A stretch of DNA of 10,384 nucleotides from a virus, in IMG/VR virus record IMGVR_UViG_3300035670_013237, positions 150,001-160,384 of that record. One strand, given 5' to 3'. The position numbers were made by a program, and so were the translations under genes. Shown here piece by piece: positions 1 through 9,440 of the stretch; position 1 is the stretch's first letter, and each line of letters begins with the position of its first letter. Below the pieces are notes generated by a model that saw only the letters and a program-made list of their open reading frames with translations, was not told the DNA's origin and did not search any database.

Positions 1-92
1 GATTTGGGCTCGTCGATGAGGAGAACCCCGAGAAGTATCCGATATCGGAAGATGAGCTCCAGTCTGTCATGAGTGGTAAGAGCCTCACATGA
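1..92 (+). CDS. 3' end of an upstream CDS (partial; frame 3, stop TGA 90-92), hypothetical protein
   Basis: Frame 3 is open from the window edge (FGLVDEENPEKYPISEDELQSVMSGKSLT*). Its TGA overlaps the ATG of the next ORF as ATGA (89-92), a typical translational-coupling junction. Confidence 0.35.
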   Translation, partial: FGLVDEENPEKYPISEDELQSVMSGKSLT

Positions 93-346
93 TAGACCTA
101 GCAATTACCATTTTGTGCACTGGAGTTGGTTCCGGTGCACTTTTTTTATCGCTCGCCTGTGCACATCGCATTGTGTCAGAGACTAGAATGAAGAAGAGCG
201 CGCTAGAGCGCTCGTTGCAAGCTGAAGAACCTCAGCAGGCCGTGGATGAACTGCAGCAGCGTCTAGAAGAGTTTAGGCGGGCTCGTTTTGGCCCCACGAT
301 GCAGCAGGGCTCTCCACACTCTCAGAAAATTCAAAAAAATAGGTAA
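89..346 (+). CDS. small membrane-anchored coiled-coil protein, hypothetical
   Basis: ATG start overlaps the upstream stop. The N-terminus is hydrophobic (LAITILCTGVGSGALFLSLACA), followed by a charged helical Q/E/R-rich tail. The stop TAA (344-346) lies inside the SD of the next gene. Confidence 0.5.
   Translation: MIDLAITILCTGVGSGALFLSLACAHRIVSETRMKKSALERSLQAEEPQQAVDELQQRLEEFRRARFGPTMQQGSPHSQKIQKNR
314..323 (+). promoter_or_regulatory. copy 1 of recurring motif CCACACTCTC (core CACACTCTC 315-323)
   Basis: The exact 9-mer core also occurs at 692-700 and 1162-1170. Each copy lies just upstream of a plus-strand start codon (360, 713, 1172). Function unknown. Confidence 0.3.
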
Positions 347-351
347 GGAGG
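344..351 (+). promoter_or_regulatory. Shine-Dalgarno site TAAGGAGG for the 360 start
   Basis: Near-perfect anti-SD complement, 8 nt upstream of ATG 360. Confidence 0.65.
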
Positions 352-359
352 AATTAGGA

Positions 360-668
360 ATGGCTTTGAAAAAAGGTGCTCGAGTTGACAGGGGATACGC
401 GACGGTCACAGATGATGAGGGCGTCAACTATCGTGAAATCGCAGAAATGATGACCGAGATTGGATTCACGATGAACCACTCGTCCGCACGTAATTATGTC
501 CTGCGTGTCATGCGCAAGTTTGCGGTAGCCTTCGATGAGAGCTGGGACCTCGACCTCACAGAGGATCGAATCGACGAAATTGCCAAGTCTCCATTCTTTC
601 AGCAGGGTATCGCAGAGCTCCTGCACAGCCTCGAGGCACTCCGGCGGGTTCGTAATTCTTCGACATAA
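360..668 (+). CDS. small helix-turn-helix DNA-binding protein (sigma-70 region-4-like HTH), 102 aa
   Basis: The strong SD at 344-351 argues for ATG 360 rather than the ORF-track start at 288. The segment VNYREIAEMMTEIGFTMNHSSARNYVLRVMRKF (nt 423-521) has the helix-turn-helix pattern of sigma r4/LuxR-type domains. Assignment is by eye only. Confidence 0.65.
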   Translation: MALKKGARVDRGYATVTDDEGVNYREIAEMMTEIGFTMNHSSARNYVLRVMRKFAVAFDESWDLDLTEDRIDEIAKSPFFQQGIAELLHSLEALRRVRNSST

Positions 669-690
669 AAGTAATAGTTATTTTGAATTA

Positions 691-700
691 GCACACTCTC
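691..700 (+). promoter_or_regulatory. copy 2 of recurring motif GCACACTCTC
   Basis: Exact 10-mer shared with 1161-1170. It lies in the 669-712 intergenic gap directly 5' of SD AAGGAG (701-706). CTCTC (696-700) and GAGAG (704-708) can pair across a 3-nt loop, which would occlude the SD. Confidence 0.35.
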
Positions 701-712
701 AAGGAGAGCGAG

Positions 713-1156
713 ATGATGAAGCAAAAGAGCCTTTCTAAGTCAAATATTTCAACTCTAAAGTTGACAGACCTCCTGCGCCGGCGGCGGGCGACCCTGCGCG
801 AATACATCGATGATTTTGGCATCATCACGTATGAGGCTCTCCTCGAGAGGTGCACCAGGATTGGTGTTATACCTCCCAGCAGGGAAGAATTTGCTGGACT
901 AAACATTCCTGTCGTCAATTCTCCTGCAGAGGGTCTTGTCGTGCTAGAGCCCCCACCTGTGATACGGGAGGTCACAGGAAAACCAATCGACCCTGAAACC
1001 AATGAAGAGCTACCCTTCTTCACCCAAGAAGATGAGAGCGTTAATTCTACGCCTACCACAGTGGGAGAAGGAGGAGAGCATGTTATGTTCCAGAAACCTT
1101 CTACAAAAAAGACCAAAAAGCGAAAAGTTGAGCTCTTTGAGCTTCCTGAAGAGTGA
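713..1156 (+). CDS. hypothetical protein with helical N-terminal domain, acidic/proline-rich linker and basic KKTKKRK tail (147 aa)
   Basis: SD AAGGAG lies 6 nt upstream of the ATG and the frame is clean. The N-terminal LKLTDLLRRRRATLREYIDDFGIITYEALLERCTRIGV looks like a SAP/Rho-N-like helix-hairpin. No family assignment is possible by eye. Confidence 0.7.
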   Translation: MMKQKSLSKSNISTLKLTDLLRRRRATLREYIDDFGIITYEALLERCTRIGVIPPSREEFAGLNIPVVNSPAEGLVVLEPPPVIREVTGKPIDPETNEELPFFTQEDESVNSTPTTVGEGGEHVMFQKPSTKKTKKRKVELFELPEE

Positions 1157-1160
1157 TGTG

Positions 1161-1170
1161 GCACACTCTC
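1161..1170 (+). promoter_or_regulatory. copy 3 of recurring motif GCACACTCTC
   Basis: Exact 10-mer in the 15-nt gap between stop 1156 and ATG 1172. It ends 1 nt before the start codon, and no SD is present for this gene. Confidence 0.3.
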
Positions 1171-1171
1171 G

Positions 1172-1627
1172 ATGTATGGAAAGAAGAAGAAAATCAAGCA
1201 CCGCACACCTGATTCAAGCACAGAAATTTTTCTTGCTTATGAAGCCCAACTTCAAGAGCTTGAGTCGATACGGCGAGGTTTAATATTTGCTCTTGAGAAG
1301 CAGACACATCAAAATTTTTTAGCGCAGGGAGGTTGCAGAGAGTGCAGGGGGCGTGGCTGGATTCCTTTTCAAGTAGAAGGTGGATTTGATTATCCACCTT
1401 GTCCTGTTGGTGAGTGCACACCTGAGAGCCGCAGGACCACAGGGGCTGATTCAGGCTTTGATTGGCATGATGAACTCAATGGTGTGGAAAACCCCTGTGG
1501 CTCACACACAGACCAGTATGCTGTACTCATTGGTCCAGTAGATTGTATGATCAGCGAGCTAATGTCACAGGTGCTCAGTACACGCGAGAGCGTAAAACTC
1601 CAAAAGAAGGTGCAAACCCCCAACTAA
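1172..1627 (+). CDS. hypothetical protein with DnaJ-type CxxCxGxG zinc-finger motif (151 aa)
   Basis: Long ORF in the same operon orientation. CRECRGRG (nt 1334-1357) matches the CxxCxGxG signature, and a second Cys pair CPVGEC (nt 1400-1417) gives a 4-Cys site. The N-terminus is lysine-rich. No SD, so the start is uncertain. Confidence 0.6.
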   Translation: MYGKKKKIKHRTPDSSTEIFLAYEAQLQELESIRRGLIFALEKQTHQNFLAQGGCRECRGRGWIPFQVEGGFDYPPCPVGECTPESRRTTGADSGFDWHDELNGVENPCGSHTDQYAVLIGPVDCMISELMSQVLSTRESVKLQKKVQTPN

Positions 1628-1645
1628 GAGTGATAAGGTTTGGAC

Positions 1646-3010
1646 ATGGACACTGTCATCGATATTCTTGAGTCGCTAGAATCAACTTCAGGATCTAACG
1701 CTAAACGAGATACTCTCGTGCGGCACAAGGACAATGCTCTGCTGCAGGGAGTTTTTGCTGCGGCACAAGATCCATACACGGTATATTACGTTAATAAGTT
1801 CAAAATGCCACATGCGTCTTCAGTTCCAAAAGCTGACGATGACACCGTCGACTCATTTTTGAGATTTTGTCACAAAGAGCTCTCGACACGTGCCATCACA
1901 GGTAACTCAGCTCGGAGCGCAGTCATTGAGAAGTTTAGTGCCATGTCCGCCCTTCAGCAGAAATGGTGTTTGCGTATTCTGTTGAAGAATCTACGGTGTG
2001 GCGTTCAGGACACCACTGTCAACAAGGTGTGGCCTGGTCTCATCAAGGGATTTGATGTCCAGCTTGCGACGACCCTGGGCGCCAGCCATGACCCCCAGAA
2101 GGGTATTGTGCTCAATGAGCGCCCGAAGTACCCTCTTCGTGCCGAACCGAAGCTTGATGGCCTCAGATGCATTGCTGTGAAGCGTGATGGTAAAGTCACC
2201 ATGTTTACCCGCAATGGAACTGAGCTTGATACTCTGCCGACGATCAAGGCAGTCCTCGAGGCGGCGACACACTACGACAATGTGGTTCTCGACGGAGAGG
2301 CCATGGGTGCGGACTGGAATGAGTCCGCCTCAGTCGTCATGTCCCGAAAGTTCGCCAAGGATGATTCAAATATCGTGTACCATGTGTTCGATGCAGTCCC
2401 GCTCAGCGACTGGACAGGACAGAGGGTCAATCTAAATCTTCCCTATAGCAATCGACTTAAACTGGTTGAGGGAGTCATGGCTGCCGTAGGGGTAGGACCA
2501 GTCCAGCAAGTCCAAGGTGTCACCGTCAATTCTGACGAAGAATTGCTGACATACTATGGGTTCACGACGCAGAAGGGATATGAGGGCATCATGCTGAAGG
2601 ACTTGTCCGCAGCTTATGCTTATAAGCGCTCAGACGCTGTGCAGAAACTCAAGCCCGTTACAACTTTTGAGGGAGTCATTGTGGGATGGTATGAGGGCCA
2701 GCGCGGCTCAAAGCGTGAAGGCATGTTCGGTGGGTTCAATGTCGTCCTTCCGAATGGTGTCATCACTCGTGTAGGTGGCGGTTTTACTGATGCTCTGCGG
2801 GCTGAAGTTCAACTCCTCGGCCCTGACACCTTTTGCGGTCGAATCATTGAGGTTGAGGGCCAGCCTGATCCGCTGACGAAGAATGGGTTGACGGTCGATG
2901 GAAAGATTCGTTTCCCGGTGTTTTCTAGGTATCGTGATCCGTCCGATGTTGATCCTAGGGTGATCGATGCGGGACGACAGTATGTAGCTAACCAGATTCA
3001 AGGAGACTGA
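1646..3010 (+). CDS. lig: ATP-dependent DNA ligase (DBD-like N-terminal region + nucleotidyltransferase + OB fold), 454 aa
   Basis: Covalent nucleotidyltransferase motifs are present. Motif I is EPKLDGLR (Lys codon 2150-2152). Also seen: VVLDGEAM (III), VYHVFDA (IIIa), EGIMLKD (IV) and AVQKLKP (V). The OB-fold-like C-terminus contains FEGVIVGW...GGFNV...VGGGFTD. The N-terminal KWCLRILLKNLRCGV resembles the Lig I-type DNA-binding domain. The ORF track starts at TTG 1640. ATG 1646 is preferred because TAAGG (1634-1638) sits 7 nt upstream. Confidence 0.93.
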   Translation: MDTVIDILESLESTSGSNAKRDTLVRHKDNALLQGVFAAAQDPYTVYYVNKFKMPHASSVPKADDDTVDSFLRFCHKELSTRAITGNSARSAVIEKFSAMSALQQKWCLRILLKNLRCGVQDTTVNKVWPGLIKGFDVQLATTLGASHDPQKGIVLNERPKYPLRAEPKLDGLRCIAVKRDGKVTMFTRNGTELDTLPTIKAVLEAATHYDNVVLDGEAMGADWNESASVVMSRKFAKDDSNIVYHVFDAVPLSDWTGQRVNLNLPYSNRLKLVEGVMAAVGVGPVQQVQGVTVNSDEELLTYYGFTTQKGYEGIMLKDLSAAYAYKRSDAVQKLKPVTTFEGVIVGWYEGQRGSKREGMFGGFNVVLPNGVITRVGGGFTDALRAEVQLLGPDTFCGRIIEVEGQPDPLTKNGLTVDGKIRFPVFSRYRDPSDVDPRVIDAGRQYVANQIQGD

Positions 3011-3011
3011 A

Positions 3012-3329
3012 ATGAGCTATGAACCGAGGGACATGATGGGTAACGCCATCGAAGTTGGAGACACGATCGCTTACGTTTCTGATCGTGGTGGGCCGTTTCT
3101 TACCCTGGGCAAGGTAATCAAGCTTGATGGGTACAAACAAATGATTCAAATCGCCCGATCTCACTCGAGCGGCCGCTCAGGCTCTTACAACAAGATTTCA
3201 AATGGGAATCGAAAGAAGTGGGTGTGGGACTCAGTCAACGAAACCGGCTACTATGCTGACACGCCTGCCGCACCAGTGTACGTGAGCATGACAGACCGCT
3301 GTCTGCTCATCAAGAAGGTGGTTACCTAG
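3012..3329 (+). CDS. hypothetical small beta-rich protein (SH3/KOW-like N-terminal pattern), 105 aa
   Basis: ATG lies 1 nt after the ligase stop, with AGGAG (3001-3005) 6 nt upstream. VGDTIAYV...LTLGKVIKL resembles a small beta-barrel. No family is recognised. Confidence 0.65.
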   Translation: MSYEPRDMMGNAIEVGDTIAYVSDRGGPFLTLGKVIKLDGYKQMIQIARSHSSGRSGSYNKISNGNRKKWVWDSVNETGYYADTPAAPVYVSMTDRCLLIKKVVT

Positions 3330-3330
3330 T

Positions 3331-3350
3331 TCGAATATTCTCGAATATTC
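3331..3350. repeat. perfect tandem duplication TCGAATATTC x2, each containing the palindrome GAATATTC
   Basis: Read directly: 3331-3340 equals 3341-3350. The two 8-bp palindromes are centred 10 bp apart (one helical turn). The repeat starts 2 nt after stop 3329. Operator-like geometry, function unproven. Confidence 0.5.
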
Positions 3351-3362
3351 TGAGCTCATCTC

Positions 3363-3417
3363 ACGCACTGCACTACTTTTTCGACAAGTTCGTTGATGAT
3401 TTAGGCAGTGCGTTTTT
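3363..3417 (+). terminator. candidate intrinsic terminator or structured RNA at the end of the plus-strand block
   Basis: ACGCACTGC (3363-3371) pairs perfectly with GCAGTGCGT (3405-3413), followed by a T-run to 3417. The 33-nt loop is much larger than in canonical terminators, so confidence is low. Confidence 0.3.
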
Positions 3418-3604
3418 CATTGACGAAAATTTTTTGTTATGTGTTGTGCAATGCCTGTTGGGTTGGGAGTACACTGTCAACATGTGGAAGGCAACGAATA
3501 CCGATTTCAACATAGAGAAGCGCCTCATTGTGTTTCTTCAGGAAAACCCTTTTTATGCGGAGGTGTCACGGCACATTCGTAAGATCGCTAAAGACACAAG
3601 GAGA

Positions 3605-3856
3605 TCAGGCAGCGGTTAGACCTAGTGCCTCGAGTGCTTTGGTCAATAAATAACTGTCATCACTTCCCCACTGATCATAATCAGATCCAGCTAGGGTAAA
3701 AGCTTCATTATGCAGGTGTTCGCCCGAGGCGCTTTGCAGAATGCAAAGAACGAGTACAGATCCGCCGGGACCCAGTTGACGAATGTTTACACCCATGATC
3801 TTGAGAACAGTTGCTGATTTACGAAAGAATGTCACTGGTTGAATTTCTGTTTGCAT
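3605..3856 (-). CDS. hypothetical protein, 83 aa (last gene of the minus-strand module)
   Basis: ATG is preceded by AAGGTG (reverse complement of 3861-3866), 22 nt after the upstream gene's stop. No recognisable motif. A cupin-like GEHLH stretch is too weak to call. Confidence 0.45.
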   Translation of the reverse strand: MQTEIQPVTFFRKSATVLKIMGVNIRQLGPGGSVLVLCILQSASGEHLHNEAFTLAGSDYDQWGSDDSYLLTKALEALGLTAA

Positions 3857-3878
3857 GTTGCACCTTGAATATAAGTAT

Positions 3879-4334
3879 TTATGCGGGGATTATTGGCCAC
3901 GCAAGTTCAAATGGGTTAGACTGGAGTGTGACGTCACGTAATTCTTGTCGATAAACTTGCCACTCAGATTTCTTCTCAGCTGTGAGCGGACTGTCAGAGA
4001 GCTGTGTCCAATCACTCTTGTAGAGTTTATGATTGCGTTCTTCTCGTATAGATGCCCACCTTGCTGATATACGTGCATCTATTTCCTCAGGGGGTGCTTG
4101 CGTCACAACCCATGCTTGAGTCCATCTTCCGCTGTTTGGGTCAATGACTGGCGTGCCCTCTGTAGTGTTCTGTGTATGGTTCGTTTCAGGCCTTGAAGTG
4201 CTGATGACAAGTGCATATTCTTGTCCCTCGATCAGGCCTCCCGTCCATCCGATGGGAAAACTCACATTAGGATGTTCCCTCCAAATATCGACGGGATAGT
4301 TGTTAATTGCTCCGTTATTGATCCTTGCGTACAT
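3879..4334 (-). CDS. tail-fibre assembly / tail assembly chaperone-like protein, 151 aa
   Basis: Strong SD GGAGGA (reverse complement of 4339-4344). The start overlaps the upstream gene by 20 nt. The N-terminus (INNGAINNYPVDIWREHPNVSFP) and C-terminus (IREERNHKLYKSDWTQLSDSPLTAEKKSEWQVYRQELRDV...WP) match the pattern I associate with phage tail-fibre-assembly/tail-assembly-chaperone (Caudo_TAP / DUF4376-type) proteins. Recognition is by eye. Confidence 0.65.
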   Translation of the reverse strand: MYARINNGAINNYPVDIWREHPNVSFPIGWTGGLIEGQEYALVISTSRPETNHTQNTTEGTPVIDPNSGRWTQAWVVTQAPPEEIDARISARWASIREERNHKLYKSDWTQLSDSPLTAEKKSEWQVYRQELRDVTLQSNPFELAWPIIPA

Positions 4335-4941
4335 CAGGTCCTCCGAGTGCTAAGAAAGCGGGTTTGGGCGCAGTTAGAAGTAGTTCTACTCTGCCATCGA
4401 CAAGCAGGGCTTTAGTTTGCTCGATGGCAGGTAATATGTGCGTCTCAAAGTCAGGATGTTGCCTCATTGAAGCGAAGTGATCGTGCGGTATTGTTCCTGC
4501 TGTGACGAGGAAGTTTACTGCCCTGTACTCTAGTTCGAGGCGCCATTCATCGCGCTGCGCCGCCTCATGCGCCTCAAGATCAGGTAGGTGTCCAAACTTT
4601 CGGTGTGGCTGTATCTTTGAGATGCAGTCATCAATGAATGCAAGTTCAGCCCTCGCCGCGGCGATGTTGCGCTGCAGTGTATCTGCGTGTGCCGTGATCT
4701 CTGATATGTCTGCCTGCGCCTTAAGTCTCTTGACTTCATCAGGGGATGATAAATTGCGCTCAGCTTTTATAAGCTTAGCACGAGTTCTAAGCGAGCTTGC
4801 TTCTACTTGTGCCAAAGCATCATTTCTTTCTTCACGAAGATCGCAGAGCAGAGAGTATGCACCATCAGCCGTGTGGCACGACCCAATTAGAAAGTGCTCA
4901 ATTTGAAAATGTGTATTGCGACGATTATTTTTTGCAATCAT
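4315..4941 (-). CDS. hypothetical coiled-coil protein, 208 aa ('MIAKNN' gene, the intact copy)
   Basis: Long clean ORF with an ATG start. The central part is heptad-like and helical (AQVEASSLRTRAKLIKAERNL...LQRNIAAARAELAFI). Its N-terminal 22 aa are echoed by two truncated copies upstream (4967-5050, 5928-5990). No family is recognised. Confidence 0.7.
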   Translation of the reverse strand: MIAKNNRRNTHFQIEHFLIGSCHTADGAYSLLCDLREERNDALAQVEASSLRTRAKLIKAERNLSSPDEVKRLKAQADISEITAHADTLQRNIAAARAELAFIDDCISKIQPHRKFGHLPDLEAHEAAQRDEWRLELEYRAVNFLVTAGTIPHDHFASMRQHPDFETHILPAIEQTKALLVDGRVELLLTAPKPAFLALGGPDVRKDQ

Positions 4942-4966
4942 ATAAGCTGGAAATGTACTCCATAAT

Positions 4967-5050
4967 CTAAGAAAAGTTTAGTGAGCATGAGCCGACAAGG
5001 AAATTGTCAATCTGAAAATCGGTGTTGAGGCGGTTGTTCTTGGCAATCAT
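4967..5050 (-). pseudogene. truncated copy (27 codons) of the 5' end of the MIAKNN gene
   Basis: Hand translation gives MIAKNNRLNTDFQIDNFLVGSCSLNFS*. This matches MIAKNNRRNTHFQIEHFLIGSCHT at 4941 in 17 of the first 22 residues, with 12 synonymous third-position differences. Its ATG overlaps the TGA of the 5047-5934 gene (ATGA). Confidence 0.5.
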
Positions 5051-5934
5051 AGGCCACCGGGAGTTGATGATGTCGAGTTCAGAAAGCCTCGGGCGGAACT
5101 AAGGCTCGTTCCATTTGCGACCGAATTACTCGAGAATGTATATTTCTCGCATGTGGAAACAAATGATCCAGTGCTTCCGCCTGCATAGATGCCGACTGTC
5201 GCATCACTGGCAGCTGTCAAAAACCCTCTTGCGTTTGCGAGGCTTGTTCCCGCTGCAACAGTATCCCCTGAATATGTGTATTTATCAGATGTCGCCACAA
5301 ATGGCGAGCCGCTTCTGCCTCCCGCGAAGATGCCGACTACGCTCGTTCCCGACGCGCCATGGTAATCTCTTGCAGTTCCCAACGCTGTTCCGCTCGAGAC
5401 TGTGTCTCCGCTGTAAGTGTATTTACTCACAGTGGTCACTGAGGTGTAACCTCCGGTAAAATAGCCAACAGTTGAATTTCCTGCCGATCCAATGCCAGAT
5501 TTCGATTGATTGATTGATGTCGTCGCTGCCGCAGTGTCGGTGCTGTAAGTGTATTTATCAGTGGTTTTTACCTCTACACCGGTATAGCCTCCGGCGAAAA
5601 TGCCAACAGTCAAAGTCCCGCACCCTGAAATGTCAGACCTTGCTTGCGATAAATTTGCCGAAGTAGAAACCACATCGGTAGAATATGTATAAATGTTTCC
5701 ATTTGCAACAAAGCCACTTATTCCTCCTCCGACAAATATCCCCTTCGAAAGATTTCCGGCTCCTCCTGGCCCCGTCTTGGCTGCAGACAAACTCGTTCCG
5801 AGCGTTCTGGAATCTGTAGAAAATTTATATTTGTCAACGGTGGCAACAGCCGAACCACCTGTGCCTGCGGCAAAATATCCAGAACCAGCGGCAGCCGGAG
5901 GTTGCTTCGCCAATAGCCACCGCAACATCACCAT
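5047..5934 (-). CDS. six-repeat Kelch-like beta-propeller protein, paralog 1 (295 aa); putative virion-associated receptor-binding/lectin module
   Basis: Six in-frame repeats of the form G[IY][FY]xGG ... [DE]K[YF]x[YF]S..[DN]..V...[ST]L..AR...G. The N-terminus MVMLRWLLAKQP is shared with paralog 2. GGAG lies 7 nt upstream of ATG 5934. The ORF-track start at 5958 is a TTG and adds 8 residues absent from the paralog. Confidence 0.8.
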   Translation of the reverse strand: MVMLRWLLAKQPPAAAGSGYFAAGTGGSAVATVDKYKFSTDSRTLGTSLSAAKTGPGGAGNLSKGIFVGGGISGFVANGNIYTYSTDVVSTSANLSQARSDISGCGTLTVGIFAGGYTGVEVKTTDKYTYSTDTAAATTSINQSKSGIGSAGNSTVGYFTGGYTSVTTVSKYTYSGDTVSSGTALGTARDYHGASGTSVVGIFAGGRSGSPFVATSDKYTYSGDTVAAGTSLANARGFLTAASDATVGIYAGGSTGSFVSTCEKYTFSSNSVANGTSLSSARGFLNSTSSTPGGL

Positions 5935-5990
5935 GACAATTCTCCGAAATTTGTACAAGAAAAGTCAGTGCTGTCGTTCTTTGCAATCAT
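5928..5990 (-). pseudogene. more decayed truncated copy (20 codons) of the 5' end of the MIAKNN gene
   Basis: Hand translation gives MIAKNDSTDFSCTNFGELSW*. It retains MIAKN..TDF...NF as in the 4967-5050 copy. Its ATG overlaps the TGA of the 5987-6925 gene (ATGA), and its stop overlaps the start of paralog 1. Confidence 0.4.
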
Positions 5991-6925
5991 GATAAATGTC
6001 CAGGGTTTGTGGATACTCCGGCTAAGCTATACCTTGCGGTTCCAAGACTCCCACCAGCTGCGACGGTGTTGGACGAGTAGGTGTAAACTTGGCTAGCTGA
6101 TTGATACGCGAATGATGAATTCAAGCCGCCGATGAAAACCGCAACAGATGAATTCCCAAACCCTGCATGAGCATTCACGGCATTTGTGAGAGCGGTCGCC
6201 GATGACCAAGCATTTGTCGAGAACGTGTATTTTTCACTCGTCGAAATGACTGACCCAGTATATCCGCCAGTAATCAAGCCGAAGCTATTATTTCCAGCAC
6301 TTGCCATGTTATATTTTCCGGTCGACAATGCTGTTGCCGATGTTACAGCGCCGTCGGAAAACTGATACTTGTTGTGTGTGGTGAAGTATACTGTGTCAGT
6401 ACCTCCGCCGGCGAAAAAGCCATGAGTTTGTGATGCGAATCCAGCCATAGCGCGTCGAGCAGTTCCTGTCAGGCTTGTTGCTGATGTGACCGAGTCAGTG
6501 TTATATGTGTATGACTCCGCTATCAGCGTATTGACGCTACTAAAAGTAGTGGTGCCACCTGCAAAATATGCCTTTTCGGAATTTCCTGCTGACACCAGAT
6601 ATGCTCGTGCGGTCGAAAGAGACGTCACAGACGAGACAGCGGATGTGGTATATGTAAATTTTTCAGAGGAAGAAACGACCGCCACTGATGATGGAGGCGA
6701 ACCAGCAGGCACTCCGCCTCCGGCTATTATTGCAAAAGAGAAATTCCCTGCAGATGCTGCGCCTTCCCTGCCAGTTGAAAGACTCGTGCTCGCCGTTCGT
6801 GAGTTGTTGGAGAATTGGTACTTATCGACATTGTTGAACACGACGTAACCGAAATTTGCGCCTGCTATGCACAGGCCGAAATTGTTCTGTGGCTGCCTCG
6901 CCAATAACCATCGCAACATCACCAT
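5987..6925 (-). CDS. six-repeat Kelch-like beta-propeller protein, paralog 2 (312 aa)
   Basis: Same six-repeat architecture and same N-terminal peptide (MVMLRWLLARQP) as 5047-5934. It starts 7 nt after the fibre gene stop. Confidence 0.8.
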   Translation of the reverse strand: MVMLRWLLARQPQNNFGLCIAGANFGYVVFNNVDKYQFSNNSRTASTSLSTGREGAASAGNFSFAIIAGGGVPAGSPPSSVAVVSSSEKFTYTTSAVSSVTSLSTARAYLVSAGNSEKAYFAGGTTTFSSVNTLIAESYTYNTDSVTSATSLTGTARRAMAGFASQTHGFFAGGGTDTVYFTTHNKYQFSDGAVTSATALSTGKYNMASAGNNSFGLITGGYTGSVISTSEKYTFSTNAWSSATALTNAVNAHAGFGNSSVAVFIGGLNSSFAYQSASQVYTYSSNTVAAGGSLGTARYSLAGVSTNPGHLS

Positions 6926-6932
6926 AGCCGGC

Positions 6933-9440
6933 TCACTTGCTGTCCGTCATGAGTGTGACTCCTCGCCATGTTGTTCCTCCGTCGTCTGTGACGAATGAGA
7001 GGACGTCCACACCCGACGCAGTTAGAGTTGGTGCTGTGCCGCCCGGCCATTTAACTGATAAGGGCCACTGTTGCACGCCCGTGCCACCATTCGTTAATTC
7101 CAGTGTAACCACCACCGCACCTGACGCAGGAACATTGGAGAAAGTCCACGTTAATCCACCAGATGCGGTCTTTGTGAAGTACCGTGCGTTGTTAGAGAGA
7201 TCCATGTCAGAAGCGCTCACGGCATTGACTGACATGTCGACATTGGCGGTGATAGTCACAGCACCATTGGAACCTGTGGAAGTTATTATATTAGGCCCAG
7301 CAATAAGATAAGGTGTGTTGTCAAACAACCTAGTCAGAGATCCTGTTATACCTGTCGCTGATTTGATTGTTCCACTGACAGTAACATCACCAGTGAATAG
7401 AGATTTTTCAGTGCTCTGGCCTATCGCACCGCTGACAAAGAAGAACGTATCGGACTTGAGTGAACCGGAACCGACTAAGACAGCACTTTGATTGACAAGG
7501 AAGATGTCACTCCTGTCTGCATCTAAATCGCCCGTTCCATTTCCCACTATAAATAATGAATCAGTATTGTCGCGCTTGTTGTACTGCCCAACCGTATTCT
7601 GGCCCGATCCTGATGCAATGGTTCCTATACCTGCAGCGTGTGAATACCAGCCAAATGCTTCGCACGCTTGGCCTTCGGCATGCGAATATGCGCCCCATGT
7701 GTGTGTGTTGAGACCCTCTGCATGGGAATATTCTGCGCCCGCATGTGTATATGCTGTTGCACCCTCTGCATGGGAATAGTCTGCATCTGCGATTGTACCA
7801 TTCCCCTCAGCATGGGAGCTGTATGCATTCGCTTGTGTGTTGAAGCCCTCTGCATGTGAATATTCACCTGCAGCGAGAGCACCATTCCCCTCAGCATGCG
7901 CGCCTGTATCAGTCGCTTGTGTGTTACGGCCTTCGGCATGCGATGCAAGCCCCGTTGCTGCTGCCTCATATCCTTCGGCATGTGAGTGGTCACCCCCAGC
8001 CGAGGTAAGAAGCCCTTCCGCATGTGCGCCCAACCCTGATGCTGTCGGTCCGCCGAGTCCTAAGCTATCATTTCTCGCACCCTCAGCATGTGAATAATCA
8101 CCAGACGCAGTTGTGTCATAGCCCTCAGCATGTGAATAATCGCCAGACGCAGTCGTAGAAATACCCTCAGAATGTGCGCCTATGACAGATGCTTGTGTAG
8201 CCTGTCCCTCTGCATGGGAATAATCACCTGACGCTGACGTTCCAATTCCTTCAGCGTGCGATCCCACGCCAGATGCTGTAGGGCCATTTAAAAGTAGTGT
8301 GACAAGATCTCCTGCACCTTCGGCATGTGAATACTGCCCGCTCGCTGTCGTATTGTAGCCTTCAGCATGTGAGTGCAGGCCTGACGTTATAGTCTGATAT
8401 CCTTCTGTGTGTGAGCCTTCGCCTTGCGCATCCGTGCTGACACCCTCAGCATGCGACCACTTTCCAGTAGATGTGGTGTTACTCCCCTCAGCATGAGAAG
8501 ATTCTCCCACTGACGTGGTATTATCACCTTCAGCATGTGACCATTCTCCCTCCGCTGTTGTCTGATAGCCCTCTGTATGAGCACCTGTGGCAAGGCCATC
8601 CACGCTGGTTTCTTGGCCCTCTGCATGCGAGTAATTTGCTAAAGCTATTGACTGGTAGCCTTCAGCATGTGCCCCCACACCCTCGACCTGTGTTTCATAA
8701 CCCTCAGCATGCGAATAATCGCCATTTGGTGACGTGTATGTGCTATAGCCTTCAGCATGTGAACCCTCTCCAAGTGTTTGAGTGCTCACGCCTTCTGCAT
8801 GCGACCATTTTTCTGTAGAAGTAGTACTATTTCCTTCAGCATGAGAGGATTCGCCTGTTGCGATGGTGTTATCACCTTCTGCATGCGAATACATGCCTGT
8901 GGCTGTCGTCCCATAACCTTCAGCATGTGAATAATTTCCATCTGCACTTGTAGTAGAACCCTCAGCATGTGTACCAATTGTTGATGCCTCAGTATTGAAC
9001 CCTTCAGCATGTGAATAATCTCCAACTGCTAGGCAGCCGCTGCCTTCAGCATGTGAATAAACGCCTGTTGCTCTTGCTTCAAATCCGTTTTCTAGAGACC
9101 CTGTCAAATAAACCGTGTCATTTGCGAATGTAAAGTTTGCTGATCCCCCAAATGCCCCTGACCCACCATTATATTGCACACTTGTGTCTGGGCTTGCGGG
9201 CAGGCCAGTGCCACCAGCAGCTTCAATAGTAATTGATCCGTCTATCTCTTCTGTGAGTGTGATGTTCGGGCCTGCATTTAGGTCGACTGACAAGGTCACA
9301 TCTCCCTCTGTGCCCCCTCCTGTGAGACCAGTGCCTGCTATCACAGCCGTGATGTCACCGCCCACCGCCTGCAGCACAGGCACTGCGCGGTAAAAAGAAT
9401 AGGTCTTCCTAAAGCGATTTTTATCAATTTTCTTCACCAT
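6933..9440 (-). CDS. tail fibre / adhesin with YadA-head-like (Hep_Hag, left-handed beta-roll type) repeat array, 835 aa
   Basis: N-terminal fibre-like motifs are present (AGTGLTGGGTEGDVTL, SVQYNGGSGAFGGSANFTF). There are 33 copies of the [YWS]SHAEG core, about 14 aa apart. The array closes with NTVGQYN...LFIVGNGTG, as is typical after such repeats. A 230-aa non-repeat C-terminus follows. Confidence 0.9.
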   Translation of the reverse strand: MVKKIDKNRFRKTYSFYRAVPVLQAVGGDITAVIAGTGLTGGGTEGDVTLSVDLNAGPNITLTEEIDGSITIEAAGGTGLPASPDTSVQYNGGSGAFGGSANFTFANDTVYLTGSLENGFEARATGVYSHAEGSGCLAVGDYSHAEGFNTEASTIGTHAEGSTTSADGNYSHAEGYGTTATGMYSHAEGDNTIATGESSHAEGNSTTSTEKWSHAEGVSTQTLGEGSHAEGYSTYTSPNGDYSHAEGYETQVEGVGAHAEGYQSIALANYSHAEGQETSVDGLATGAHTEGYQTTAEGEWSHAEGDNTTSVGESSHAEGSNTTSTGKWSHAEGVSTDAQGEGSHTEGYQTITSGLHSHAEGYNTTASGQYSHAEGAGDLVTLLLNGPTASGVGSHAEGIGTSASGDYSHAEGQATQASVIGAHSEGISTTASGDYSHAEGYDTTASGDYSHAEGARNDSLGLGGPTASGLGAHAEGLLTSAGGDHSHAEGYEAAATGLASHAEGRNTQATDTGAHAEGNGALAAGEYSHAEGFNTQANAYSSHAEGNGTIADADYSHAEGATAYTHAGAEYSHAEGLNTHTWGAYSHAEGQACEAFGWYSHAAGIGTIASGSGQNTVGQYNKRDNTDSLFIVGNGTGDLDADRSDIFLVNQSAVLVGSGSLKSDTFFFVSGAIGQSTEKSLFTGDVTVSGTIKSATGITGSLTRLFDNTPYLIAGPNIITSTGSNGAVTITANVDMSVNAVSASDMDLSNNARYFTKTASGGLTWTFSNVPASGAVVVTLELTNGGTGVQQWPLSVKWPGGTAPTLTASGVDVLSFVTDDGGTTWRGVTLMTDSK
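7626..9059 (-). repeat. in-frame 42-nt (14-aa) coding repeat array, 33 units (x-x-S-H-A-E-G-x-x-T-x-A-x-G)
   Basis: I counted 33 H[AST][EA]G cores between aa 128 and 605. Most are 14 aa apart, some are 15-17 aa apart, and two units are expanded to 23 aa and contain GPTASG[VL]G. On the plus strand the repeat appears as recurring CCTTCAGCATGTGAATA-type strings. Confidence 0.9.

Follow-up and report, generated by a model that had tools for sequence, protein, structure and literature searches.

The window analysed here is a stretch of 10,384 nucleotides (nt) of viral DNA (IMG/VR virus record IMGVR_UViG_3300035670_013237, positions 150,001 to 160,384), and it derives from a jumbo phage. All of the listed features lie on the minus strand and form one compact operon. 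In the direction of transcription, the order is a tail fibre gene, propeller gene 1, stub 2, propeller gene 2, stub 1, a 25-nt gap, an intact gene referred to here as the MIAKNN gene, and a gene for a tail fibre assembly chaperone (Table 1). The propeller genes encode Kelch-type beta-propellers, and the two stubs are short open reading frames resembling the start of the MIAKNN gene. The ATG of each stub overlaps the TGA of the propeller gene before it (ATGA), and the TGA of stub 2 in turn overlaps the start of propeller 2 (ATGGTGA; ATG at 5934). The chaperone gene overlaps the end of the MIAKNN gene, with the same placement in relatives. These three gene starts had been picked out in an earlier sequence-only reading, and its coordinates, translations and counts for them were all correct on recheck. 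The stubs are best explained, with a probability of about 80%, as the scars of two successive illegitimate joins with related phages, which stacked a second propeller gene in the locus.

Table 1. Features of the propeller locus, in window positions (aa, amino acids)
Feature	Coordinates	Strand	Description
Tail fibre gene	6933..9440	-	835 aa; PHROG tail fibre families at residues 739-831 plus phrog_25468
Propeller gene 1	5987..6925	-	312 aa, Kelch-type; start MVMLRWLLARQ, end STNPGHLS
Head box of propeller 1	6891..6925	-	conserved 35-nt start ATGGTGATGTTGCG...
Stub 2	5928..5990	-	20-codon open reading frame, translation MIAKNDSTDFSCTNFGELSW and stop
Propeller gene 2	5047..5934	-	295 aa, six-bladed Kelch beta-propeller
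Head box of propeller 2	5903..5935	-	33 nt identical to the first propeller head of relative L020
Stub 1	4967..5050	-	27-codon open reading frame, translation MIAKNNRLNTDFQIDNFLVGSCSLNFS and stop
Homologous part of stub 1	4985..5050	-	first 22 codons of a foreign MIAKNN allele, sequence intact
Junction sequence	4942..4984	-	five out-of-family codons of stub 1 plus TAG (4967-4984), then the 25-nt gap (4942-4966)
Intact resident MIAKNN gene	4315..4941	-	208 aa, start MIAKNNRRNTHFQIEHFLIGSCHT
Tail fibre assembly chaperone	3879..4334	-	151 aa; Pfam Phage_tail_APC, E 1.4e-17; PHROG tail fibre assembly families

Judged by its sequence, stub 1 is an unambiguous relic, namely a piece of a foreign MIAKNN allele that is young and has not decayed. 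A repeat search linked it to the intact gene through a 67-nt repeat (4876-4942 and 4985-5051, 72% identical), and it also returned a 21-nt repeat family with three copies, at 4921, 5030 and 5970. A protein hidden Markov model (HMM) built from the N-terminal 32 residues of 37 family members recognised stub 1 with 47.3 bits (independent E-value 1.6e-12). With a nucleotide HMM of 78 distinct gene starts, stub 1 scored 50.2 bits (E 1.2e-13), compared with 51.5 bits for the intact gene. The family-invariant residues R7, N9, F12, Q13, F17, G20 and C22 are all kept. Over the 66 homologous nucleotides, stub 1 differs from the resident gene at 19 positions, which fall on codon positions 1, 2 and 3 in the numbers 3, 1 and 15 (binomial p = 6e-5). 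There are 12 synonymous codons and five amino-acid changes, so 17 of the 22 residues are identical. The counts on which the sequence-only reading had based its claim of mostly synonymous third-position differences were therefore exact. Because the divergence is mainly synonymous, it would have arisen while both sequences were full-length genes under selection.

A living counterpart of stub 1 was found in other phages. Stub 1 matches the start of the full-length gene in L110 and L111, which are loci from two Joint Genome Institute (JGI) metagenomes, at 63 of 66 nt (95.5%), and the full-length gene of locus L029 at 58 (88%). The resident gene, which lies 109 nt downstream in its own genome, is matched at 47 (71%). 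The homology with L110 ends exactly after codon 22, where TCATGC is followed by TCACTAAAC in stub 1 and by CACACCGCC in L110. The joint is thus sharp and non-homologous. Over the remainder of the L110 locus, identity to the window amounts to no more than about 69-72%. It had been proposed that stub 1 comes from a diverged full-length homologue and not from a recent local duplication, and the much higher identity to L110/L111 than to the resident gene bears this out.

The propeller genes show a comparable foreign affinity. Propellers 1 and 2 are 37% identical to each other. Among the loci, the nearest relative of propeller 1 is the propeller of L029 (44%), while propeller 2 is nearest to the protein P0121 (53%), followed by the propellers of L020 and L022 (47-50%). 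On these comparisons, the two propellers differ in ancestry and are not local duplicates, as each is closer to propellers of other phages. An in-situ tandem duplication of a propeller gene with its MIAKNN start, followed by long divergence, would account for the tandem layout and for the repeated gene starts and heads (the 35-nt head repeat 5900-5934 / 6891-6925 is 89% identical in the repeat search), and the inner propellers of L020 do look like a recent local duplication. However, the fragment is far closer to the gene of another phage than to the copy beside it, both propellers resemble foreign propellers (44-53%) more than their neighbour, and stub 1 and the resident gene have diverged mainly at synonymous sites. 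Such a duplication is very improbable.

Stub 2 is accepted as a probable copy of the MIAKNN start, much older and decayed, an assignment that depends on its position and on the bases it shares with stub 1. At this pre-specified position, 14 of the 17 bases that follow the ATGA agree with stub 1 (p ~1e-6). Over 21 nt, stub 2 matches stub 1 at 18 and the resident gene at 15, and insertions or deletions are needed beyond codon 6. A gapped alignment extends through TDF..NF with insertions or deletions of 6, 3, 1, 1 and 5 nt; against the family set, 7 of 300 shuffles score as well. Because it carries these changes, stub 2 would be the older of the two scars, and it lies closer to stub 1 than to the resident gene. 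The 3' end of stub 2, GGAGAATTGTC, supplies the ribosome-binding site of propeller 2, with GGAG located 7 nt upstream of that gene. Its GGAGAAT resembles the spacers between the propeller genes of L020 and L022.

The arrangement is reproduced outside the record from which the window was taken. Other sequencing runs yielded three independent assemblies, and each of them agrees with the window at 100% identity over its whole overlap. The SRR11566350 assembly spans window positions 1 to 5935 and contains stub 1 plus the final bases of stub 2, the SRR11566349 assembly runs from 10384 to 5906 and contains stub 2, and the SRR10854513 assembly runs from 6762 to 4422 and contains both. Each stub is covered by at least two of the three. 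An assembly chimera was rejected on the strength of this identical arrangement.

Of two independent Logan contigs, one stops at 5935 and the other at 5906, so that they overlap by 30 nt, inside the 33-nt propeller head that is shared at 100% with L020. These ends were considered as a sign of cassette polymorphism, and this was rejected since the head shared with an L020-type relative explains them more simply. The MIAKNN protein of L020 (P0004) is also encoded on a contig from SRR11566349, a run that carries the window phage. The shared head box probably fragments short-read assemblies of the locus.

Relatives were collected from 14 IMG/VR loci, 80 metagenome loci and several contigs found by exact protein look-up. 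Stubs were sought with a six-frame regular expression, the protein HMM and the nucleotide HMM over 108 loci (678 kb). No stub and no second copy of the N-terminal motif was found in the more than 100 fetched MIAKNN-bearing loci of other phages. Two weak stub-like matches (L029 at 2285 and L020 at 7323; E 4-13) were judged to be chance. Both stubs of the window are ATG-initiated open frames, and this would be expected if they were independent conserved micro-genes, a possibility that the sequence-only reading had itself named as contrary to its account. However, the more than 100 loci hold no counterpart, and the stubs are not called as genes in the source annotations. Taken together, micro-genes and a chimera can be given almost no credence.

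Synteny was examined in 52 distinct loci, each of which had 1.1 kb or more of sequence upstream. A Kelch propeller gene lies immediately upstream of the MIAKNN homologue in 39 of them. Propeller and MIAKNN genes overlap by 4 nt in eight loci and by 1 nt in another eight (16 in total, about 40% of the 39). There is one upstream propeller in 33 loci, two in seven, three in one and four in one, and the fibre chaperone follows MIAKNN wherever gene tables were examined. In the closest relatives, whose MIAKNN proteins are 67-74% identical (L016/17/18, L029, L030/L041, L034 and L110/L111), the order is a fibre tip of 113-115 aa ending in GVSLMTDSK, a single propeller, ATGA, a full-length MIAKNN gene and the chaperone. 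Their propeller starts with the head MVMLRWLLA or a close variant and has an SSTPGHL-like end. The sequence-only reading had described the copied unit as a propeller gene plus the coupled start of its partner, and this unit exists as a single cassette in these phages. The position that a stub occupies in the window holds a full-length MIAKNN gene at the coupled ATGA in L016, L029, L030/L041, L034 and L110/L111, so relatives do carry the whole gene where that reading expected it.

Longer arrays are found elsewhere in the family. L020 has four propellers with 13-nt TAAGGAGAAACAATGA spacers between them. Its inner three propellers have near-identical 13-nt spacers (TAAGGAGAAACAAT, then A or G, then A) at 2842-2854, 3599-3611 and 4518-4530 and heads reading MLRFLLCKAQS, and the MVMLRWLLAKQ head is found on the first propeller only. 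This suggests recent local duplication or gene conversion of the inner propellers. A more distant clade, in which the MIAKNN homologue starts with MNSNPHRNN, carries one to three copies of a unit made up of a propeller and a fibre-tip gene of 152 aa ("MTIPRNL...TQFK") (L003 601-4323, L004 464-2806 and L011/L012). Because this clade repeats a different unit, array growth is, as far as these sequences indicate, recurrent, with lineage-specific unit boundaries. Genes of 312, 296 and 247 aa also follow the chaperone in L022 (9130-11731) and L023 (3383-5984), and two of them score as Kelch propellers; in this relative, propeller genes accumulate downstream of the MIAKNN-chaperone pair too.

The module from which the window would have grown can be described as a fibre-tip domain, a six-bladed Kelch propeller, a helical MIAKNN partner coupled to it by ATGA, and a fibre assembly chaperone. 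Behind each propeller of the window would stand what remains of a formerly full-length MIAKNN allele, namely its first 15-22 codons. On two occasions, DNA of a related phage would have been joined illegitimately, with the break inside the 5' end of MIAKNN near codon 22. The older join would have left stub 2, which has since decayed and whose tail would now serve as the ribosome-binding site of propeller 2. The younger join would have left stub 1, which a living full-length allele still matches at 95% identity. The net result would be a stacked array of two divergent propeller genes, whose products are presumed to be receptor-binding or fibre-accessory proteins. The joins were possibly assisted by microhomology and may have taken place between co-infecting phages that shared the module. 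Each event could have been a single crossover that replaced everything downstream or the insertion of a cassette before the resident partner gene.

Two short stretches of the module are unusually well conserved, and they might have helped to pair the recombining partners. The head of propeller 2 is identical to that of L020 at 100% over 33 nt, to that of L029 at 94% over 36 nt and to that of L110 at 93% over 44 nt. The head box of propeller 1 sits within a fibre-tip/head block that is 72-77% identical to relatives. Overall, the head and MIAKNN 5' boxes show 87.5-100% nucleotide identity to relatives, compared with about 68-73% in neighbouring coding sequence. The MVMLRWLLA head box and the MIAKNN 5' box could accordingly be dedicated recombination linkers, by which cassettes were captured repeatedly through homology upstream of the resident partner. 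This is a possible but less likely explanation. It would fit the high identity of the heads to L016, L110, L029 and L020 and of stub 1 to L029 and L110 (88-95%), the ends of both stubs near the same codon (~22) and the arrays of two to four propellers that are common in relatives. However, at least one illegitimate join per event is needed, because two homologous crossovers in the boxes would swap the propeller instead of adding one and would leave no stub. The joint at the end of stub 1 is sharp and non-homologous. Other arrays have different units and junctions and no stubs (the 152-aa tip plus propeller in L003, L004 and L011; the 13-nt ribosome-binding-site spacers in L020). The window contains no recombinase or endonuclease gene, and constraints on the protein or on translation initiation could also account for the conservation of the boxes. 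The sequence-only reading had proposed repeated insertion of foreign cassettes through flanking homologies. The foreign origin of the cassettes and the excess conservation of the boxes stand, whereas insertion through the two homologies is less likely, as two homologous crossovers would exchange propellers without leaving a scar. A more ambitious form of the same idea is improbable. It would make the boxes linkers of a recombinase-free capture system that stacks Kelch-propeller host-recognition genes, with a preferred breakpoint at codon 22 and stubs retained to keep the coupling.

Several observations weigh against two illegitimate joins as the origin of the stubs. Stub 2 is non-significant by profile (2.7 bits, E 79 with the nucleotide HMM), and the support for it consists of its position and 18 of 21 bases. 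No variant with one or three cassettes was seen, as every recovered assembly of the phage has the same arrangement where it covers the region. No donor that combines a near-identical propeller 2 with a matching MIAKNN start turned up, and scans with a degenerate DNA pattern for NTDFQIDNFLVGSC returned 0 matches in viral contigs and 0 in genome contigs. Propeller 2 shares only 40% identity with the propeller of L110. Its nearest homologue (P0121, locus L109) is followed by a coupled MIAKNN gene, but the start of that gene is not stub-like (45/66). Finally, the 43 nt after the breakpoint of stub 1 resemble no fetched locus, so that no right-hand partner of the younger join was found there.

The 43-49 nt past the breakpoint were also considered as the tail of a deleted third propeller. 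This candidate was rejected, as the translation (…DYGVHFQLI and stop) is unlike the SSTPGHL ends.

The relics may have acquired a use. If the stubs served as translational relays, ribosomes would restart at the ATGA and be delivered to the next start, and this would be compatible with a relic origin. The layout conforms to such a function: the stub starts overlap the upstream stops, and the stub stops lie at or near the downstream starts, that of stub 2 within the ATGGTGA of propeller 2. The intact MIAKNN gene begins 25 nt past the stop of stub 1 and has no ribosome-binding site at a usable distance, since 17 nt separate its GGAG from the ATG. Where relatives have a gap before MIAKNN, they mostly carry AGGAG, and those without a gap are ATGA-coupled. 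Moreover, the frame of stub 2 has stayed open despite several insertions or deletions. Nevertheless, open frames of 20-27 codons are expected by chance in about 30-40% of cases (estimated from (61/64)^n), propeller 2 is preceded at 7 nt by a GGAG of its own, and L047, L048 and L069 also lack a clear ribosome-binding site and yet have no stub. Because frames as short as these carry little statistical information, the relay idea stays speculative and is rather unlikely.

The proteins of the module can be assigned with differing certainty. A profile of the propeller family matched six-bladed Kelch domains in the PDB over nearly its full length, with KLHL12 as the best match (E 5.4e-19). Single-sequence Pfam matches of the propellers do not reach the curated threshold. 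The propellers have six repeats of ~47 residues, and the AlphaFold2 model of propeller 2 has 24 strands, a mean predicted local distance difference test score (pLDDT) of 94.2 and Foldseek template modelling (TM) scores of 0.85-0.87 to Kelch domains. Residues 1-16 of propeller 2, which include the MVMLRWLLAKQ head, are flexible, modelled with low confidence and located outside the propeller. The MIAKNN protein is all-alpha in its AlphaFold2 model (pLDDT 89.1). Neither its sequence nor its fold matches any PDB entry significantly, Pfam gave nothing above the curated cutoff, and PHROG and NCBIfam gave no match. Its structural neighbours in BFVD are all uncharacterised, and several belong to large or jumbo phages (Ralstonia RP12, Pseudomonas PaBG and Synechococcus S-ShM2). 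In total, 124 homologues were found, most of those listed being about 200-230 aa long, and a 271-kb contig with the same genes as the window encodes an identical MIAKNN protein. No nucleotide match to the locus was obtained among isolated phages. A protein search of isolated phages placed MIAKNN homologues only in the 263-kb Burkholderia jumbo phages BcepSaruman and BcepSauron (50.6% identity).

Processes of this type have a long history. Hendrix, Juhala, Pedulla and colleagues reportedly traced the mosaicism of lambdoid phages and mycobacteriophages to illegitimate recombination, with gene fragments left as scars at mosaic joints. The window shares the sharp drop from high to no similarity, which sometimes falls within genes (in stub 1, from 95% to none after codon 22), the truncated gene pieces at the joint and the neighbouring modules of different ancestry. 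It differs from the usual mosaic joint in having two scars of the same gene start in series, at equivalent ATGA-coupled positions, and in that the scars bracket a growing array of paralogous propeller genes. The process is thus that of the already known phage mosaic joints; the finding refines this picture and adds no new mechanism.

Tail fibre loci are known sites of exchange. In T4-type phages, modules are exchanged at tail-fibre adhesin loci, where gp37/gp38 modules take part (PMC3157838), and modular shuffling mediated by PeSLs, which are promoter plus stem-loop cassettes (PMC2839356), has been described (PMC2839356, PMC4122927). The window is similar in that host-range genes beside a fibre and chaperone would be swapped or accumulated via short conserved flanking sequences. 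It is unlike a PeSL system in that the junctions have no promoter, terminator or stable fold, and the conserved boxes are coding sequence, namely the head of the propeller gene and the 5' end of its partner. Neither a terminator nor a structured RNA was found at the junctions (fold z-scores +0.75 and +0.63, no Rfam match), and promoter-like sites occurred at the chance rate, none of them placed at the junctions. A further difference from T4-type phages is that the variable module here is a Kelch propeller and not a gp38-type adhesin. The row of variable cassettes upstream of a fixed gene is reminiscent of integron-like arrays, as an analogy only. Unlike in integrons, there is no integrase and there are no attC-like inverted repeats, and the junctions differ between cassettes and lineages. 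No recombinase or endonuclease domain was found in the main open reading frames of the 10-kb window (the genome is 271 kb).

Six-bladed Kelch propellers are encoded by other jumbo phages as well, including vB_PcaM_CBB and BcepSaruman. The Kelch propellers CBB_550, CBB_552 and CBB_554 are unusual proteins of vB_PcaM_CBB, and CBB_552 is a virion component (PMC5259590). In BcepSaruman, the MIAKNN homologue (gp109) adjoins the gene of a "kelch-motif containing protein" (gp110). The two genes differ from the window in being divergently transcribed and not coupled, and there is one propeller. For neither phage have arrays or stubs been described. The Kelch and MIAKNN pair of BcepSaruman (L001 7020-8654) lies amid nucleotide-metabolism genes and not beside a fibre gene.

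Illegitimate recombination that leaves gene fragments at mosaic joints is already established. What is new is a widespread, uncharacterised tail-fibre module of Kelch propeller, MIAKNN and chaperone genes with one to four propellers, together with a serial pair of scars of the same coupled gene start. The locus would provide an unusually legible record of how a host-recognition locus grows, as two dated scars of one gene start would correspond to two acquisitions. One breakpoint is pinned to the nucleotide by a living full-length allele that is 95% identical up to the break. If the propellers are receptor-binding proteins, arrays of this kind would offer jumbo phages a way to widen their host range.

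Some further features of the locus and its relatives can be added. The C-terminal fibre-tip domain of the fibre gene ends in GVTLMTDSK, and the 3' end of the gene shares 72-77% nucleotide identity with the fibre-tip genes of L029, L016 and L110. The fibre is built largely of ~14-residue "xxSHAEGxxTxAxG" repeats (periods of 42 and 84 nt in Tandem Repeats Finder (TRF)), and it matches models of trimeric autotransporter adhesins (EmaA, Ata and BimA) weakly and phrog_25468 strongly. It looks like a fusion of a repeat shaft and a fibre-tip domain, because its last ~110 residues are a separate 113-aa gene just before the propeller in close relatives. In L042 (6387-7001) and L043 (1847-2473), a gene of 204-208 aa, whose product starts with MYHCHYKED... 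in the former and MNYHCWCKED... in the latter, separates the propeller from the MIAKNN homologue. A 76-aa protein with a weak match to Pfam Ribosomal_S21 is encoded a few genes upstream of the propeller array in L020 (229-459) and L022 (4307-4537), and it may be a phage-encoded S21-like protein. Beyond window position 1, in a locus of the same phage (L025 5844-6659), a 271-aa protein with Sigma70_r2 and r3 domains is encoded a few kb past the ligase, and by these domain matches the window phage appears to carry its own sigma factor.

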